IMG/VR virus record: IMGVR_UViG_2585427731_000003
From: a virus
Lineage: Duplodnaviria; Heunggongvirae; Uroviricota; Caudoviricetes
Reading direction: 5' to 3' (one strand)
Length of the DNA stretch: 7,546 nt
Shown: one piece after another, positions 1 through 7,546 of the stretch
Numbering within the stretch: the first letter of the stretch is position 1
Layout: every line of letters begins with the position of its first letter
Notes under the pieces: model-generated
What the model was told of the DNA's origin: nothing
What the model saw: the letters and a program-made list of their open reading frames with translations, nothing else
Databases searched by the model: none
Program-made: the position numbers and the translations under genes

Positions 1-41
1 TAGACTGGCCCCCTGAATCTCCAGACAACCAATATCACTTA
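1..41. repeat. IS2 terminal inverted repeat (orfA-proximal end)
   Basis: The first ~41 nt (TAGACTGGCCCC-CTGAATCTCCAGACA-ACCAATATCACTTAA) pair imperfectly with the reverse complement of 1291-1331. The extent is approximate. Confidence 0.7.
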
Positions 42-91
42 AATAAGTGATAGTCTTAATACTAGTTTTTAGACTAGTCATTGGAGAGCAG

Positions 92-418
92 ATGATTGAT
101 GTCTTAGGACCGGAGAAACGCAGACGGCGTACTACACAGGAAAAGATCGCTATTGTTCAGCAGAGTTTTGAACCGGGAATGACGGTCTCCCTTGTTGCCC
201 GGCAACACGGTGTGGCAGCCAGCCAGTTATTTCTCTGGCGCAAGCAATACCAGGAGGGAAGTCTTACTGCTGTGGCCGCAGGAGAACAGGTCGTTCCTGC
301 CTCTGAACTTGCTGCTGCCATGAAGCAGATTAAAGAACTCCAGCGCCTGCTCGGCAAAAAAACGATGGAAAATGAACTCCTTAAAGAAGCCGTTGAATAT
401 GGGCGTGCAAAAAAGTAG
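92..418 (+). CDS. insC: IS2 transposase OrfA (InsC), helix-turn-helix DNA-binding subunit; 108 aa here, ending at a TAG immediately after the A6G slippery run
   Basis: ATG at 92 gives [56 protein letters not shown]...EYGRAKK, which matches IS2 InsC as I recall it. The track ORF 47..418 is the same frame with a spurious upstream extension. A GGAGAG Shine-Dalgarno-like motif lies a few nt upstream of the ATG. Confidence 0.85.
409..415 (+). other. A AAA AAG heptamer, candidate -1 programmed ribosomal frameshift site joining insC to insD
   Basis: AAAAAAG sits at 409-415 at the end of the orfA frame, with the orfA stop (TAG 416-418) directly downstream. orfB is open in the -1 frame from here to 1320. 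This is the standard IS3-family arrangement. Confidence 0.7.
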
Positions 419-1320
419 ATAGCGCACGCGCCCTTATTGCCCGGGGATGGGGAGTAAGCTTAGTCAGCCGTTGTCTCCGGGTGTCGCGTGCGCAGTTGCA
501 CGTCATTCTCAGACGAACCGATGACTGGAAAGATGGTCGCCGCAGCCGTCACTCAGATGATACGGATGTGCTTCTCCGTATACACCATGTTATCGGAGAG
601 CTGCCCACATATGGTTATCGTCGGGTATGGGCGCTGCTTCGCAGACAGGCCGAACTTGATGGTATGCCTGCGATCAATGCCAAACGTATTTACCGGATCA
701 TGCGCCAGAATGCGCTGTTGCTTGAGCGAAAACCCGCTGTACCGCCATCGAAACGGGCACATACCGGCAGAGTGGCTGTGAAAGAAAGTAATCAGCGATG
801 GTGCTCTGACGGGTTCGAGTTCCGCTGTGATAACGGAGAAAAACTGCGAGTCACGTTCGCGCTGGACTGCTGTGACCGTGAGGCACTGCACTGGGCGGTC
901 ACTACGGGCGGCTTCAACAGTGAAACAGTACAGGACGTCATGCTGGGAGCGGTGGAACGCCGCTTCGGCAACGAGCTTCCGGCGTCTCCAGTAGAGTGGC
1001 TGACGGATAATGGTTCATGCTACCGGGCTAATGAAACACGGCAGTTTGCCCGGATGTTGGGGCTTGAACCGAAGAGCACGGCGGTGCGGAGTCCGGAGAG
1101 TAACGGCATAGCAGAGAGCTTCGTGAAAACGATAAAGCGTGACTACATCAGTGTCATGCCCAAACCAGACGGGTTAACGGCAGCAAAGAACCTTGCAGAG
1201 GCGTTCGAGCATTATAACGAATGGCATCCGCATAGTGCACTGGGTTATCGCTCGCCACGGGAATATCTACGGCAGCAGGCCAGTAATGGGTTAAGTGATA
1301 ACAGGTGTCTGGAAATATAG
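415..1320 (+). CDS. insD: IS2 transposase OrfB (InsD) catalytic region, expressed as an OrfAB fusion by -1 frameshift; DDE/rve integrase core
   Basis: The -1 frame is open from 415 to the TAG at 1318-1320. The track ORF 481..1320 (GTG-initiated) is the same frame: ...[14 protein letters not shown]...[11 protein letters not shown]...[11 protein letters not shown]...[13 protein letters not shown]...[19 protein letters not shown].... This matches IS2 InsD from memory. The canonical GTG start (GTGGATAGC in the reference as I recall it) reads GTAGATAGC here. Confidence 0.8.
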
Positions 1321-1331
1321 GGGCAAATCCA
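1291..1331. repeat. IS2 terminal inverted repeat (orfB-distal end)
   Basis: Reverse complement of 1291-1331 reads TGGATTTGCCCC-TATATTTCCAGACA-CCTGTTATCACTTAA, an imperfect match to 1-41. The shared GCCCC...TTCCAGACA...ATCACTTAA blocks are directly visible. Confidence 0.7.
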
Positions 1332-1333
1332 CT

Positions 1334-1414
1334 CAGTATCTCGATAAGCGCAGAGAAATGATGCAGTGGTGGGCGGACTGGCTTGATGAAAAGGGGGAGG
1401 GATGGTTATTCTAA
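1334..1414 (+). other. 26-codon open frame ending at TAA 1412-1414 (QYLDKRREMMQWWADWLDEKGEGWLF*), open at the IS2 junction; possible 3' remnant of a gene cut by IS2
   Basis: Reading frame is open from the first base after the IS2 end to a stop at 1412-1414, and is convergent with the tailspike gene. I do not recognise the peptide. It could equally be non-coding. Confidence 0.2.
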
Positions 1415-1472: not shown

Positions 1473-3320
1473 TTAAAAAAACTCTTTTCCTGTTGTAAAC
1501 ATGCCTTCGGGAAGACGCGCACCGTTAACTGAAGAAAATATAGGACCATAATATTGCTTGTTATAGCTTTGTTGAAATGAAATATATCCACCACCATATC
1601 CGTTATCTGACATATTTACTTGAGAAAAATAACAATTAATTGTTGACGCATCAATAGCTCTAAACTGCTGCATGAATCCGCATTGGCCAACAACAACATC
1701 ACCATCATCTTCTTTTCTTATTAAAATAGGAAGGTGAATCCAGTTAAAATTCCTTGCGCTCGTAGCCATATGTGTATACACGCGCTCGCAAATAATATCA
1801 TCACCAGATGTTTTATTTATTGCATAATTTGTCACGTTTGCTCCATCGCCAAATATAGTTTCAGCAACATAGCTATATGTAGATGACGAAACTGTAAGCG
1901 TTGATGCTGTATGTAGTGTTACATGCCTTGATAAGAGCAATTTAGGAGCATAACCAGAATCAAGGTTATAGGATGCATTTTCTGTCCTCAACCTTTGAAG
2001 AAAATCACTATGACCACCATGGTATGTACCGAAGAACTTTCCAGTTGATAATTCTTTTGCAGCAAACTCTGTTGCTCCATTCCCACCGAAGTAATATGAA
2101 GGCTCCCCATTCACAAAAGGAGTTATTGTTGCTATAAAATTGTCATAATCTAGTAATTCACAACATCCAAGGCTAAAAACGTTTAGCCCAACGAGATTTG
2201 CAGGTTGAAGCGTTGTCTTATCTGTATTTTCAACTTTAAGATACCAAGTTCCTCCAAGTCCATTTATTTCAATATCAATAGGAAGTGGTGGCTGACCACC
2301 TGGTAATGTTTTTGTGTCAACGATCTTTTGCGTTATCCAGTCAGCGTTGTTTCTGCTTATTGATATTGTTACTGACTTACTTGATGCATTAGAGCATGCA
2401 AGTCTGACATGCGCTATGCTATTTGTTAACCTGTATGTTACATAAGCGTTTGTGGAAATTGAATAAACTTGAGGTGTGTTAAGGGTGAAATCACCTTGTT
2501 CTGTTTCCGCGTGTATAGCGTCATCTGTTTTAGAAAAGCCATACAATGTACTTATTTGAGATTCAGTAAATGAAGATAGGGAGACGCCAGTGTCACTTTT
2601 TGTATGTGGTGATAATTTTGCGATAACTGCATCACTTACCATATATACCCTTCCAGGCAAAAAAGGTGATCCCCCGCCATAGTTATTCGAGTCTGATGGT
2701 GAAACCTCATTTGTTACTCTATGAGAAATATATTTTCCTTTCCCATGACATCTTTTACTTATAATATAAAAGTCATTAGAATTTTCATCTTTGACTATTG
2801 CTTTTATGTGTGTTGTTATTGTAGGTGATGTTGGGGGGATGATTGATGTCACAAAGTTAACATCTATAGATTTTCGCACATTAATAAATTCATCATCTAT
2901 ACTAGTAATTTTATCTTTTAACGTTCCATCTTCATATCCAATATTTTCAGTCCCATCAGGACCTGCGAGAGACTTTGATAGTTGATCCGGGTCATACTTC
3001 AGAACATTCGGAAAATAGAACTGCTGCGCACCATACGCATCATAAACAGCCATAGAGTGGCCTTGCACGGTTACAAACTTGGCAATCTGTCCGTTATATA
3101 CCGGATATCCAGCAGCGTTAATGATGATTGGTTGCGAAACAGGAACGTGAGAACCGTCTTCATTTTCCACATAAACCTGAATCTGGTTTTCATGATTTAC
3201 CGGGTCAGTGTCAATTTTACCGATATAAATTTTACCATTAGCTACGGCTTTAAAAGAACGAGCCATAGTGAAGAGTTGCGAAGGCATTCCTATAACCACA
3301 TTTGGTGTTATATTAGTCAT
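1473..3320 (-). CDS. Phage tailspike protein: P22 gp9-like N-terminal head-binding domain (~115 aa) fused to a divergent, AT-rich receptor-binding domain (~500 aa) of unknown fold
   Basis: From the ATG at 3318-3320 the product starts [59 protein letters not shown]...[15 protein letters not shown]...NVLKYDPDQ. This closely matches the P22 tailspike N-terminus as I remember it ([42 protein letters not shown]...NVLKYDPDQ). AGGA lies ~10 nt upstream of this ATG. The track ORF 1473..3422 extends 34 codons further upstream from a GTG, which I regard as spurious read-through. Stop is TAA at 1473-1475. Confidence 0.85.
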   Translation of the reverse strand: [615 protein letters not shown]

Positions 3321-3423
3321 GTGTGCAATCCTATTAGACTTGTTTGATAAAGAAGATAATGGAGTTAATGCTACAAATGACGCTATTGATTTGAAAAATG
3401 ATCTTCTATTCATATTAAACACA

Positions 3424-3450
3424 CATTAATGCAGAAAATTTGCATTAATG
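3424..3450. promoter_or_regulatory. Perfect 10-bp inverted repeat CATTAATGCA-(7 nt)-TGCATTAATG in the spacer between the ejection-protein gene and the tailspike gene; candidate operator or weak terminator/attenuator
   Basis: Directly visible: 3424-3433 CATTAATGCA, spacer GAAAATT, 3441-3450 TGCATTAATG. Each half contains the self-complementary octamer CATTAATG. It lies ~100 nt upstream of the tailspike ATG and ~60 nt downstream of the preceding stop. Confidence 0.3.
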
Positions 3451-3511
3451 TAAGCAAAAAGCGCAATCAACTCCATAGCAATTTAATTTTTAACTGTAAT
3501 TTACATCTACA

Positions 3512-5509
3512 TTACCATGACAACGCATCAGACTTAGCCCCCTGCGTCATAGCGTTAATGGCCTTTTGCGCCTGCTGCATGGCTTTCTCGAACACTGTTG
3601 ATCCGCGTGGGGTGTTTGCCATTCGGAGCATTGCATTTCTGAATGGCTCGCTCTCATAGGCGCGAGTAAGAAGTCCGTAGCTTACTGCTGCGCCAGTTGT
3701 TGCAGGGTTCATTGCCGTCCCATACCCGATAATGAACGGGATGGTTTGCTGGCCTGTTGGTGTTGTTACAGCCGCTTTTGCAGCCTGCTGCGTTGATTGA
3801 AGGTAGTTTTTCAATCCTTTCAGATAAGCAGCATCCTGACCTTTAAATGTGATGCCAGTCTGGTTTTGCAGGATGTTAAGCTGTCGAAGGAACTGATCAG
3901 GTGAACCACCTGATTTCTCCATCGCCTTTCCAATGATGCCATTGCGCATTTGCGCCCTGCCAACACGACCAACTGAGTTATACAGCGTCTTAATTTCCGA
4001 TTTGTTCTTGCTGAATAGCATGTTGTTGACAACTTCCGGCGTCAGATCGCCTTTCATGAGAACATTCTTCAGCCTGGTATTCTTTAGTTTCGCGGCTTCG
4101 TCAGCGTAGACGGCATTGGCCTGCTGATATTTACGGAGAGTATCGTTGCCAAGATTCTGACCAATGGCACCATTGATATCGTCGGTCATTGCCTTGTAAA
4201 CGCGCTGAATGGCAGCATCGGAACGGTTTGGTAACACTGGTCGCTCACCCTTCACGTCCATTCTGAACTGGCTGCGCAGATCGCTTAATTGCTTCAAATC
4301 CAGATTTACCGGACCATCAGGACCAGCATTGCGAACAAGCTCATCACGATAGGACTGAAGTTTTGAAATGGTCTCGTTATCAGCAACCTTACCAAGCTTC
4401 TGCAGGTTAGATATTTCTGTATCAATCTGCTGAATTGCTCTTGCAGGCTGAATGTTTATTCCCGCCATAGCATTCTGAACCTGCTCCAGTCGATTTCCTG
4501 CAGCGCGACGAATTCCTGATGTTTTCGCTTTAAGGCTGTCAATAACAACCGCTGGATCATACTCACCGAATTTATCAGCAAATCTCTGAACCAACTGGCT
4601 TCTCGCTTCCTGTTGCGTTGCTCTCATTCCGCTTGTGCCAGCCAGGGGGATATTTTCTGCTGTCGTTTGCGCCATTTTTCCGACGCGGGAAGTAGGCTGT
4701 AACAGGTCTGTGGTGTGCAGAGGCACTCCTTCACGCTCTGCAAATCTGATAGCTTGCTGCGCTTCTGGTGCAATAGCACCACGAACGCCACGATAAGCAG
4801 CGCCTAATCCACGTCCGGCAGCGTTAATAGCGCCGCCAGCCAGAAAGCCAATGCCTAAATCGGTAGCGAGTGCTTCCGCATCATCTTTCGCACTATTTGC
4901 AGCAAGTGACCCGACTGCGTTTTCAGCGAGAAGGCGAGTTGCACCCTGAGCGATTCTACCAGCGAGTGTTGGTGCCTGTGTTGCCGCTCTCTCAATGCCA
5001 GCAGGAGTGAGGTAAGGCAATGCCTCAGCAAATACCCTGCCCTCTGTAGTTTGTGGAGTCAGCGCGCCTTGCTGAAGGCCAAAGTCCTGCTCTAATCCCT
5101 GCGTTGTTACTCGTGGCGCTGGGGGATATGTCCCATCGCCAATTCCGAGTTTACCGCCAGCCCAAGCCGCCGCGCTTGTTACAGCATCGGCAACTGATGC
5201 AGGTATGTTTGCCACGTTCACGCCAGCCTGCACCAGTCCGCGACCAGTTTCTTTCACGGCTTCACCAAGATCCGACATAAATCCACTTTGCTGTGGTTGT
5301 TGCTGTGATACTGGTTGTTGTGTCTCCACTGGCTGCACAGATGGCAATGGATAGGCAGCATAGAAAGCTTTCTTAGCCTGCTCTGCATTTTCTCCGGCTT
5401 GCGGGGCAACGACTTCATTGAAGTATTGCTCCTGAGCCTGCGCTTTTTGTTCTGGTGCTAACGCCTGATACTGTGGAGAGGCGATAACATCTTTCCATGC
5501 TTTAGCCAT
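3512..5509 (-). CDS. Probable P22-like ejection (DNA-transfer / internal virion) protein, 665 aa, gp16-position homolog; Q/P-rich linker and Gly/Ala-rich segment
   Basis: Long minus-strand ORF at ~55% GC, ATG at 5507-5509 with a GGGGTGA Shine-Dalgarno-like motif upstream, stop TAA 3512-3514. The function is inferred from its position immediately upstream of the tailspike in a P22-like layout (14-7-20-16...9), from its size, and from low-complexity linkers. I do not recognise a specific family by eye. Confidence 0.5.
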   Translation of the reverse strand: MAKAWKDVIASPQYQALAPEQKAQAQEQYFNEVVAPQAGENAEQAKKAFYAAYPLPSVQPVETQQPVSQQQPQQSGFMSDLGEAVKETGRGLVQAGVNVANIPASVADAVTSAAAWAGGKLGIGDGTYPPAPRVTTQGLEQDFGLQQGALTPQTTEGRVFAEALPYLTPAGIERAATQAPTLAGRIAQGATRLLAENAVGSLAANSAKDDAEALATDLGIGFLAGGAINAAGRGLGAAYRGVRGAIAPEAQQAIRFAEREGVPLHTTDLLQPTSRVGKMAQTTAENIPLAGTSGMRATQQEARSQLVQRFADKFGEYDPAVVIDSLKAKTSGIRRAAGNRLEQVQNAMAGINIQPARAIQQIDTEISNLQKLGKVADNETISKLQSYRDELVRNAGPDGPVNLDLKQLSDLRSQFRMDVKGERPVLPNRSDAAIQRVYKAMTDDINGAIGQNLGNDTLRKYQQANAVYADEAAKLKNTRLKNVLMKGDLTPEVVNNMLFSKNKSEIKTLYNSVGRVGRAQMRNGIIGKAMEKSGGSPDQFLRQLNILQNQTGITFKGQDAAYLKGLKNYLQSTQQAAKAAVTTPTGQQTIPFIIGYGTAMNPATTGAAVSYGLLTRAYESEPFRNAMLRMANTPRGSTVFEKAMQQAQKAINAMTQGAKSDALSW

Positions 5510-6317
5510 TAATCACCCCATAGCGAAGAAAAGTTACTGCCAGTAGTAGATTGTTGCCCTGGCATATTCTGCACCGGCTCCTGATAATCAAACTGTTTTT
5601 TAACAGTGCTCAACTTGCTTTCAAGCTGATTTCTAATCTTTCCGATAGAGTCACGAAAAGCCTTTTCACTCATTTTGGGGCTTAGGGCACCAACCGCATC
5701 GGATAATTTTTTACCCTCTGCATCTGAAAGAGCGCCCATACCCTTCAGGGACTGCACCATAGGAAGGAATGTTTGAGCTTTAAAGGTGTCGAGCCTTGCT
5801 TCAAAGTTAGCCGCATCAGAGCCGGGAACTGTCGGAAACGCTGAGCGAATTCCTACTGCTTTTGAAAGGCCGGGGCTTTGCTCTATCTCGTTGAGAGAAT
5901 CAAGCGCGGTGCTGAACGTATCAACTGCACCCTGAGCGGCGGCCTGCCTGTCCGCGCGGGCTATGTCAGCCTTTTGCCGAACATCTGCCTGTTTCTGTTT
6001 TAGCTCTTCAAGCTTTAACTGATTGCTTTCTCTGGCTATCTGTCTGTCCAGAGCCTTTTCTTGTAATTCTGCTCTTTGTATTTCTCGGGAAAGAGCAGCA
6101 TTCTGTGCGCTGATGTTCTGTCCACGTATCTGGATGTCCTGACCTCGAGCTGTTAGTGCTTCTCCTGCCTGATTGCTGCGGATTGTCTCTGCCAGCCTGC
6201 CTCGGTCAATCTCACGACCAGCCATCTTGTCCTGAACATTGAAGTAATCAATCGGACCAAGAGCAGCCATTCCAAGGTGATCAACAAACTCACCAAATCC
6301 TGAAGGATTCTGCTGAT
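5509..6317 (-). pseudogene. 3' portion (at least 253 codons) of a probable ejection-protein gene (gp20-position), 5'-truncated by the IS629-like insertion at 6318
   Basis: Track ORF 5509..6270 (-). The same frame stays open upstream of the M at 6268-6270 right up to the IS boundary (...NQQNPSGFGEFVDHLG-MAALGPIDY...), and the first stop in that frame lies inside the IS (6343-6345). There is no convincing Shine-Dalgarno before the ATG at 6270. The protein is coiled-coil-like and K/E/Q/R-rich. Its stop overlaps the next gene's start (TAATG, 5507-5511). Confidence 0.55.
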
Positions 6318-6342
6318 TGAACCGCCCCGGGAATCCTGGAGA
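6318..6342. repeat. Left terminal inverted repeat of the IS629-like element
   Basis: TGAACCGCCCCGGGAATCCTGGAGA. The partner repeat is outside the window, so pairing cannot be confirmed here. Confidence 0.55.
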
Positions 6343-6371
6343 CTAAACTTCCTGAGAAAGAGGTAAACAGG

Positions 6372-6698
6372 ATGACTAAAAATACTCGTTTTTCCCCCGA
6401 AGTCCGTCAACGGGCAGTCCGTATGGTTCTGGAAAGTCAGAGCGAATATGACTCACAATGGGCGACAATTTGTTCCATTGCTCCAAAGATTGGCTGTACG
6501 CCGGAGACTCTGCGTGTCTGGGTTCGCCAGCATGAGCGGGATACCGGGGGCGGTGATGGAGGGCTCACCACCGCTGAACGTCAGCGTCTGAAAGAGCTGG
6601 AACGTGAAAATCGTGAACTGCGCCGCAGTAACGATATCCTTCGCCAGGCTTCCGCTTATTTTGCGAAGGCGGAGTTCGACCGCCTCTGGAAAAAATGA
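6372..6698 (+). CDS. IS3-family (IS629-like) transposase OrfA, 108 aa, helix-turn-helix plus leucine-zipper-like C-terminus
   Basis: Track ORF 6372..6698: [57 protein letters not shown]...[45 protein letters not shown] lies ~8 nt upstream of the ATG. Stop is TGA at 6696-6698, immediately after an A6 run. Confidence 0.85.
6690..6698 (+). other. A6 run plus in-frame stop (AAAAAATGA); candidate -1 frameshift window joining orfA to orfB
   Basis: AAAAAA at 6690-6695 is followed by the orfA stop. The -1 frame has ATGATG at 6695-6700 and stays open to the window end. Confidence 0.5.
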
Positions 6699-7546
6699 TG
6701 CCACTGCTGGATAAGCTGCGTGAGCAGTACGGGGTCGGACCGCTATGCAGCGAACTGCATATTGCCCCGTCAACGTATTACCACTGTCAGCAACAGCGAC
6801 ATCATCCGGATAAACGCAGTGCCCGTGCGCAGCGCGATGACTGGCTGAAGAAAGAGATACAGCGCGTATACGATGAAAATCACAAGGTATACGGTGTGCG
6901 TAAAGTCTGGCGTCAGTTGTTACGGGAAGGTATCAGAGTGGCCAGATGCACTGTGGCACGTCTCATGGCGGTTATGGGACTTGCCGGTGTTCTCCGGGGT
7001 AAAAAGGTCCGTACGACCATCAGCCGGAAAGCCGTTGCCGCAGGCGACCGCGTAAACCGTCAGTTCGTGGCAGAACGACCTGACCAGCTGTGGGTGGCTG
7101 ATTTTACTTACGTCAGCACATGGCGGGGCTTCGTCTATGTGGCGTTCATCATTGATGTGTTTGCCGGATACATCGTGGGGTGGCGGGTCTCATCGTCCAT
7201 GGAGACGACATTCGTGCTGGATGCACTGGAGCAGGCGTTATGGGCCCGTCGACCGTCCGGCACGGTCCATCACAGTGATAAAGGTTCTCAGTATGTATCG
7301 CTGGCCTACACACAGCGGCTTAAGGAAGCCGGATTACTGGCATCAACAGGAAGTACAGGCGACTCGTATGACAACGCGATGGCGGAGAGCATCAATGGTC
7401 TTTACAAAGCGGAGGTAATACACCGTAAGAGCTGGAAAAACCGTGCAGAAGTGGAACTGGCCACACTCACGTGGGTGGACTGGTATAACAATCGACGATT
7501 GCTGGAAAGGCTGGGCCATACTCCTCCGGCAGAAGCAGAAAAAGCT
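6695..7546 (+). CDS. IS3-family (IS629-like) transposase OrfB, DDE/rve catalytic domain; 3'-partial (runs off the window)
   Basis: I translated this frame by hand from 6695: [284 protein letters not shown]. No stop occurs before 7546. D (LWVADFTY), D (HHSDKGSQY) and E ([10 protein letters not shown]) are spaced as in retroviral-integrase-type transposases. It is absent from the ORF track, presumably because it has no stop within the window. Confidence 0.8.

Follow-up and report, generated by a model that had tools for sequence, protein, structure and literature searches.

The question raised by this locus is whether an insertion sequence lodged in an ejection-protein gene is what makes a P22-like prophage defective. 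The window analysed here, 7,546 bp long, is the whole of draft contig JORI01000020.1 (assembly GCA_000713105.1), whose ends fall in IS2 and IS629. A sequence-only reading had considered the prophage likely defective, with an IS629-like element as the cause. As the contig stops inside IS629, the far side of the element was read in relatives carrying the window: six complete genomes contain it entirely at 99.9% identity, with 8-9 differing positions overall and 7-8 in the native 4,986 bp. The window also has five base differences of its own, of which three lie within 12 bp; these are possible sequencing errors. The host is an enterotoxigenic E. coli (ETEC) lineage, and the locus is chromosomal, at tRNA-Arg argW. 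Very probably, three events account for its present state: an IS629 insertion in the gp20-type gene of what is now a remnant of about 6.5 kb at argW, a separate deletion reaching dsdX, and a later insertion of IS2 into intS. The features of the window are as follows.

1..1331, plus strand: IS2-type element of the IS3 family, complete; the window opens exactly with its left terminal repeat, TAGACTGGCC, and its right end, ...GGGGCAAATCCA, lies at 1331.
1332..1402, plus strand: 3' end of intS, severed by IS2; the CTCAG target duplication (1332-1336), then the last 21 codons.
1473..3320, minus strand: tailspike gene of 615 codons, with a P22-type head-binding domain (PF09008, E = 3e-65) and a rare receptor-binding part.
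3321..3511, minus strand: spacer from the gp16-like gene to the tailspike gene, with a 12-pair hairpin (3452-3422) and an in-frame, Tat-signal-like extension of 34 codons (3422-3321).
3512..5509, minus strand: gp16-type (Sf6 gp13) ejection protein gene of 665 codons with an intact ORF (PF26808, Phage_P22_gp16).
5509..6270, minus strand: 253-codon ORF starting at the internal Met179 of a 431-codon gene, without a Shine-Dalgarno sequence.
5509..6317, minus strand: gp20-type (Sf6 gp12) ejection gene, of which the 3' part is present: nt 488-1296 of 1,296, from part of codon 163 to the stop, as shown by aligning it with Sf6 gp12 and the intact gene of CH10508.
6315..6317, minus strand: right-hand copy of the IS629 target duplication, ATC; its partner past the IS is ATG in the complete genomes.
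6318..7546, plus strand: IS629, the first 1,229 of 1,310 bp, ended by the contig edge; orfA occupies 6372-6698, and orfB extends past the window's end.

The element at the right-hand edge is IS629, as the sequence-only reading had supposed. Its terminal repeat begins at 6318 on the plus strand (TGAACCGCCCCGGGAATCC...), and positions 6318-7546 match elements that carry the annotation 'insertion sequence: IS3 family IS629' at 99.5-99.6% identity. The full element, read in the related locus L002 (10691-12000), measures 1,310 bp and carries both imperfect terminal inverted repeats, beginning TGAACCGCCCC. Its orfA matches HTH_Tnp_1 and the downstream ORF matches rve domains, while PGAP names it 'IS3-like element IS629 family transposase' in L005 and adds 'programmed frameshift' and 'AL1L pseudoknot'. 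It resembles the IS629 of Stx-converting phages and O157:H7 genomes in identity (99.6%), length, terminal repeats and the orfA/orfB programmed frameshift, and apparently in a 3-bp duplication; unlike those annotated copies, it resides in an ETEC lineage, and its duplication is imperfect. IS629 insertions in prophage genes are well described in pathogenic E. coli (PMC3271280). Strain E562 has a group II intron inserted into this IS629 copy.

The 253-codon ORF next to the element corresponds to the 3' 62% of an ejection gene of the Sf6 gp12/P22 gp20 type. Proteins of this family contribute to the trans-envelope conduit for DNA, and infectivity depends on them (PMC8954989). The ejection-gene DNA in the window is 98% identical to Sf6 gene 12 (P22 gp20 homolog; PF16928, Inj_translocase) and, like it, lies upstream of a 665-aa gp13/gp16-type gene; the ORF stop overlaps that gene's start (TAATG at 5509), an arrangement shared with intact phages. 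The retained protein region is 97% identical to the intact CH10508 ortholog, which is in turn 98% identical to Sf6 gp12. Unlike Sf6 gene 12, the window gene holds only nt 488-1296 and cannot encode the 431-aa protein; contiguous codons remain for 164-431 only, short of the full 431. A PDB sequence search with the intact 431-aa ortholog gave no match.

That gene callers report a 253-aa protein on about 50 contigs might speak for a genuine shorter gene with a natural start at 6270, but the evidence makes this almost certainly wrong. The ORF aligns to residues 179-431 of the 431-codon orthologs of Sf6 and the CH10508 prophage, in which the Met at 6270 is codon 179, and conserved coding sequence continues upstream of that Met up to the IS end. 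The first reading had named an ortholog that naturally starts at this Met as fatal to its case, and none of the phage and E. coli matches examined includes one. The Pfam match (PF16928, P22 injectosome translocase, E = 2e-20) enters the profile only at position 156 of 218, and PGAP labels the ORF 'incomplete, missing N-terminus'. Moreover, the 12 nt preceding the ATG at 6270 (GATCACCTTGGA) contain no Shine-Dalgarno sequence at a usable distance, which bears out the earlier doubt about a ribosome-binding site. The frame, as had been noticed, stays open beyond the last native base before the IS terminus (6317), as far as codon 6342-6340, and meets a TAG at 6345-6343, within IS629; between 6270 and codon 6342-6340 it offers no further ATG, GTG or TTG. 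Judged from its sequence, the 253-codon ORF is a pseudogene fragment and not a functional member of the family.

The placement of the IS within the coding sequence of the gene at the gp20 position, also proposed from the window, is confirmed by aligning both halves, as read in the complete relatives, to an uninterrupted ortholog. The flanks in the complete genomes read ...CAGATGTATG[IS]ATCAGCAG..., and the intact gene reads CAGATGTATCAGCAG; the far junction in relatives contains ...GCTCAGATGTATGTGAACCGCCCC.... IS629 in the gp20-type gene thus reads as a simple insertion, because intact orthologs have the sequences on either side of it exactly next to each other. The flanks share 3 bp of the intact gene, but the two copies read ATG and ATC, a difference that a later point change or imprecise integration could explain. 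Such a mismatch is also a possible product of recombination between two IS629 copies, by inversion or deletion, in which case the flanks would not originally have been neighbours. This origin is highly improbable, since inter-copy recombination would join unrelated DNA and the flanks are instead adjacent in intact orthologs with the expected 3-bp overlap. Imperfect or absent duplications are, in addition, common for IS629: duplications are 3-4 bp, and the repeats are identical at only 21 of 47 sites (PMC3271280).

The junction could in principle be an artefact of assembling a short-read contig that ends in repeats, given that this draft contig is bounded by IS2 and IS629 and carries the private differences mentioned above. 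The probability of an artefact is negligible, however, as the junction is base-identical in the six complete chromosomes and in 13 other related loci from about a dozen separate assemblies.

The complete genomes also show what lies past the element, where the sequence-only reading had called for the right IS end, a 3-4 bp duplication and the 5' half of the gene. The right end is present; the duplication is the imperfect ATG/ATC pair, and only part of the 5' half survives. Past the 1,310-bp IS, the same gene continues exactly for 313 bp (nt 178-490) in the six genomes; unrelated DNA at this place, the other finding that had been set down as counting against the interpretation, is thus not what they show. 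After those 313 bp comes a truncated chromosomal dsdX, to which the gp20-type gene is fused. The junction sequence is GCAGAATAAGAGCCACTATTGCAGGGGTG, within ...GCAGAATAAGAGCCACTATTGCAGGGGTGTTTCAGC..., and the breakpoint, compared with K-12, shows a 2-bp microhomology (TA), with only the final 296 nt of dsdX remaining. Gene nt 1-177, all prophage DNA upstream, chromosomal dsdC and 78% of dsdX are deleted in the six genomes. An IS629-adjacent deletion was rejected as the source of this junction, the breakpoint lying 313 bp from the IS at a plain 2-bp microhomology.

Annotated maps of three complete relatives (504239, TW11681 and E562) give the order evgAS-emrKY-dsdA-dsdX'-gp20'-IS629-gp20'-gp16-tailspike-intS'-IS2-intS-argW-yfdC. 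Between dsdX' and argW, these maps contain no phage genes besides the split gp20, gp16, tailspike and intS. In these relatives, the head, packaging, lysis, replication and immunity modules have been lost, while the att site and the integrase gene are kept. In the intact relative CH10508, the portal, scaffold, capsid, gp4, gp10, needle, gp14 and gp7 genes lie directly upstream of the gp20-type gene; none of this set, from portal to gp7, occurs in the three remnant maps. The gp16-type gene directly follows the gp20-type gene at the locus, and the gp7-type gene, present in intact relatives, is missing in the remnant.

The contig itself ends within IS629, leaving the sequence past the element out of view, and a comparable arrangement exists elsewhere: in CFSAN027350 and four other genomes, an IS3-family element interrupts the orthologous gene after about 126 nt, in a prophage with its capsid-to-tailspike genes all annotated. 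On these grounds, the window could belong to an otherwise complete P22-like prophage in which IS629 is the only or main defect. This is nevertheless very unlikely. All six complete genomes with the exact IS629-gp20 junction share the dsdX'-gp20'-IS629 junction as well, with its deletion to dsdX 313 bp past the IS, and their few differences from the native part of the window have been given above. A chimeric 183-aa ORF spanning dsdX'-gp20'-IS629 is, furthermore, found in draft assemblies, and its protein accession series match those of the 253-aa ORF, an indirect sign that the two occur together. Judging by the relatives, the window's own genome probably continues in the same way past IS629. 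The prophage is thus very probably a remnant of about 6.5 kb at argW, defective chiefly by deletion rather than by the IS. The earlier view was right that the prophage is defective, but its implied picture of an otherwise present prophage disabled by the IS is not supported: IS629 is one scar among several and not the cause of non-inducibility, because the upstream prophage is deleted and intS is interrupted by IS2.

The element at 1..1331 is presumably IS2, a name based on the form of its ends and on the 5-bp duplication. Its ORFs (47-418 and 481-1320) match HTH_Tnp_1 and rve, and PGAP describes the element only as 'IS3 family transposase, programmed frameshift'. The CTCAG duplication around it is perfect, and the related loci L012 and L019 have the empty site with a single CTCAG. 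The left flank in 504239 ends ...CATGCTCAG, and the intact CH10508 intS reads CATGCGCAGTATCTCGAT. At 1400-1402, where relatives have the intS stop TGA, the window contig has GGA. The locus L012 carries the IS629 junction with an intact intS, so the IS629 insertion is earlier than that of IS2.

The following course of events is proposed. An Sf6/P22-like prophage would have integrated at argW in the ETEC lineage, and the 1,310-bp IS629 would then have transposed into codons 163-164 of its 431-codon gp20-type gene, producing a 3-bp duplication. The orphaned 3' part, whose first in-frame Met is codon 179, would be left as the 253-codon ORF, lacking a ribosome-binding site or evident promoter. A separate deletion through the 2-bp microhomology probably ran from gp20 nt 177 into the dsdX gene of the chromosome, removing the whole of the upstream phage DNA together with the far attachment site. 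In a later step, IS2 would have split intS, and the remnant would thus consist of intS, the tailspike gene, the gp16-like gene and two abutting gp20 pieces.

The tailspike and the last ejection gene are retained intact, as first reported, with uninterrupted ORFs of 615 and 665 aa. The gp16-type protein has 13 amino acid differences from Sf6 gp13, whose gene is 1,998 bp, and the tailspike ORF has no internal stops and is annotated as a complete CDS. It is intact in two independently decayed argW remnants, that of the ETEC lineage and that of LR-45; among the collections searched, no intact prophage or phage carried its receptor-binding domain. The spacer upstream occurs in 18 of 5,426 genomes and lies at the same position in each. 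Its in-frame extension resembles a twin-arginine export signal (MNRRSFFK followed by a hydrophobic stretch), and the annotated tailspike start, which has a good Shine-Dalgarno sequence, falls downstream of it. These features might suggest a domesticated, exported protein that degrades polysaccharide or excludes phages and is kept as useful to the host, possibly with the gp16-like gene, a reading that nonetheless appears most improbable. The retention of the tailspike gene is equally well explained by its position adjoining att and int. A consensus scan yielded 9 promoter-like sites against 9.3 expected, which is chance level, with none pointing from the IS into the phage genes, and terminators were likewise at chance level. 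This result, with the gene orientation, tentatively suggests that the remaining ORFs are not expressed.

Among known systems, the locus as a whole is close to the cryptic prophage CPS-53 (KpLE1) of E. coli K-12, which occupies the same argW site between yfdC and dsdCXA and has decayed in the same manner, with intS and a small number of att-proximal genes surviving. In CPS-53, gtr genes, tail-fibre scraps and torI are still present, and dsdC and dsdX are intact. In contrast, the remnant described here keeps the tailspike gene, gp16 and a split gp20; the torI side is lost, and the deletion reaches dsdX.

The locus is a case of ordinary genome decay, already annotated as pseudogene fragments in RefSeq. 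Recognising this 7.5-kb contig as the relic of a dead prophage in an ETEC lineage, rather than as an inducible phage, matters little except for annotation; the 253-aa 'protein' called on so many contigs should accordingly be treated as a pseudogene fragment. The fixed set of scars, comprising IS629 in gp20, the dsdX-gp20 deletion and the later IS2 in intS, could act as lineage markers. For the bacterium itself, the loss of dsdC and most of dsdX predicts a defect in D-serine utilisation.

The gene preceding the 665-codon gp16-like gene persists in the window as an open reading frame next to IS629, and a second insertion element occupies the opposite end of the sequence, at the phage integrase gene intS:

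5509-6270, minus strand: 253-codon ORF, the 3′ part of a gp20-type ejection gene
1-1331: complete IS2-type element, both ends read, with the window starting at its first base
1332-1402: orphaned last 21 codons of intS, beyond IS2

The coordinates and description of the 253-codon ORF given by the sequence-only reading are correct. Its frame stays open 5′-ward to 6342 with no start codon there, the in-frame TAG lies at 6345-6343, and the bases preceding its ATG, GATCACCTTGGA, contain no usable Shine-Dalgarno sequence. The terminal repeat TGAACCGCCCCGGGAATCCTGGAGACT starts at 6318 on the plus strand, so that 6317 is the last native base and the stop falls inside the IS. At its other end, the ORF runs into the 665-codon gene, stop and start codons overlapping as TAATG at 5509. 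The Pfam family matched by the extended ORF is PF16928 (P22 injectosome translocase, to which gp20 belongs; E = 2e-20). The alignment enters the profile no earlier than position 156 of 218, the signature of a gene without its 5′ part. This gene order is that of Shigella phage Sf6, to which the window DNA is 98% identical over gene 12 (431 codons, annotated as a P22 gene 20 homolog) and the start of gene 13 (665 codons, a gene 16 homolog), the tailspike gene being next. A review gives the same ejection protein sizes and describes these proteins as needed for infectivity (PMC8954989). Alignment to the intact Sf6 gene and to that of the intact E. coli prophage CH10508 places the Met at 6270 at codon 179 of 431; orthologs do not start there.

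Reverse-complemented, the window is identical to the whole contig JORI01000020.1 (7,546 bp, assembly GCA_000713105.1), matched by exact-protein look-up with the 665-aa product. The left edge of the window coincides with base 1 of IS2 and its right edge falls within IS629, as in a short-read contig broken at two repeated IS elements, and the record holds no flanking sequence, so that the DNA beyond 7546 has to be read in relatives. The whole window is found at 99.9% identity in six complete E. coli chromosomes (504239, 67-1, WS1933D, TW11681, S1-NGR-02-A and L6_E562_ETEC). Over 4,986 native bases the window departs from these genomes at only 7-8 positions, which makes the same far side very likely in the window's own genome. 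Among 13 related loci, five base differences are private to the window contig (1395, 1400, 2649, 2659 and 2660; also 2671), three of them within 12 bp in the tailspike gene. T-to-G changes account for two, one of which destroys the relict intS stop codon. These may be draft-sequencing errors.

The IS portion of the window is 99.5-99.6% identical to Stx-phage elements annotated "IS3 family IS629", and the PGAP name for the copy in one relative is "IS3-like element IS629 family". In 504239 the element measures 1,310 bp with both terminal repeats present. The DNA past it belongs to the same gene, as the sequence-only reading had proposed: the far side corresponds to gene 12-type nt 178-490, and the near side starts at nt 488. 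Aligned to the intact Sf6 and CH10508 genes (...CAGATGTATCAGCAG...), the flanks ...CAGATGTATG[IS629]ATCAGCAG... abut with a 3-bp overlap and are thus contiguous, as expected for IS629. The two copies of these 3 bp differ at one base (ATG/ATC). Such imperfection is unremarkable, since in a survey of IS629 insertions, where duplications measured 3-4 bp, the two repeats were identical at only 21 of 47 sites (PMC3271280). In E562, a group II intron encoding ltrA (reverse transcriptase/maturase) has inserted into this IS629 copy and divides its transposase gene (locus L005, 2962-6445).

The view of an otherwise present prophage disabled by the IS is not borne out. According to the annotated maps of three complete genomes (504239, TW11681 and E562), the gp20-type sequence beyond IS629 is only 313 bp long and is followed by the last 296 nt of chromosomal dsdX, then dsdA, emrYK and evgAS; the upstream phage DNA is gone. 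In RefSeq, the gp20 pieces on either side of the IS3-family transposase are both already labelled "phage DNA ejection protein, incomplete" in these genomes. The dsdX′-gp20′ junction sequence is common to all six complete genomes carrying the window, and among complete genomes either this junction or the IS629-gp20 junction occurs only in these six. Comparison with K-12 dsdX and the intact CH10508 gene places the breakpoint at ...GAGCCACTA|TTGCAGGGG...; the join carries no IS and shows 2-bp microhomology (TA). In CH10508 the order is terminase, portal, scaffold, capsid, gp4, gp10, needle, gp14, gp7, gp20, gp16, immI genes, tailspike, intS and argW; together with the junctions, this indicates that the deletion took nt 1-177 of the gp20-type gene and all prophage DNA upstream, including the remaining virion genes. 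By standard P22-like gene order, the losses would also include the far attachment site and the genes for lysis, replication and immunity. About 6.5 kb of phage DNA remains, versus 39 kb in Sf6. The exact chimeric ORF spanning dsdX′-gp20′-IS629 also occurs in drafts whose protein accession series matches that of the 253-aa ORF, which suggests that the two scars travel together.

A third scar lies in intS, where IS2 has inserted 66 nt ahead of the stop codon and the 5-bp duplication, CTCAG, is perfect (window 1-1402; 504239 locus 16900-18330); the shortened 364-aa IntS is still annotated as intact by PGAP. In a 265-kb contig of another assembly, the IS629-gp20 junction is identical, but intS is intact (385 aa) and the IS2 site empty, so IS629 was in place before IS2.

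Neither the tailspike ORF (615 aa) nor the gp16-like ORF (665 aa) is disrupted, as had been noted from the sequence, and in so clonal a lineage this is expected without selection. Nothing in the sequence suggests their expression: the phage late promoter region lies in the deleted part, the phage genes are oriented away from the left end of IS629, and a promoter scan returned promoter-like matches at chance frequency, none facing from the IS into phage genes. Of 5,426 complete E. coli genomes, only 7 have the receptor-binding part of the tailspike (window 1473-2980, minus strand): the six of the ETEC lineage and LR-45. In all four loci whose annotation was read, it lies in a decayed remnant. 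Its best match among 50,697 phage records is to Aeromonas phages (34.5% protein identity), and neither those records nor the 5,426 genomes yielded an intact phage of this specificity. The spacer module is present in 18 of the 5,426 genomes and in each lies between gp16 and a tailspike. In the window this spacer, which separates the gp16-like stop from the start of the tailspike gene, contains a 12-pair hairpin, TACATTAATGCA...TGCATTAATGTG (3452-3422, minus strand), with a T-rich stretch after it; the hairpin may be terminator-like or operator-like. The tailspike frame can also be extended 5′-ward by 34 codons (3422-3321, minus strand); this extension, (V)FNMNRRSFFKSIASFVALTPLSSLSNKSNRIAH, resembles a twin-arginine export signal but lacks a Shine-Dalgarno sequence. 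The annotated ATG at 3320, by contrast, is preceded at 8 nt by AGGA, and the extension is probably a chance occurrence in AT-rich spacer.

Strain LR-45 carries a second, independently decayed remnant at argW (locus L019, 18400-23600), in the order intact dsdC, torI, eag, DUF551, lysozyme fragment, 216-bp gp16 fragment, tailspike, intact intS and argW. Its tailspike is the same 615-aa protein with 13 aa differences and an intact ORF, and its internal deletion differs from that of the ETEC-lineage remnant. CFSAN027350 (locus L006, 5645-8364) and four other genomes have an independent IS3-family insertion ~126 nt into the orthologous gp20-type gene, within a P22-like prophage annotated with every gene from capsid to tailspike; this is the configuration first imagined for the window, but in a different lineage.

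The K-12 cryptic prophage CPS-53 occupies the same site, argW, as the IS629-bearing remnant, and an IS629 insertion in a prophage gene is a known kind of event, here within a cryptic argW prophage, itself a known kind of element. The deletion also reached into the chromosome, removing dsdC and 78% of dsdX (the first ~1,042 nt) and leaving dsdA (504239 locus 10083-10379). The loss of dsdC and most of dsdX predicts that this lineage has no regulated D-serine uptake and use.
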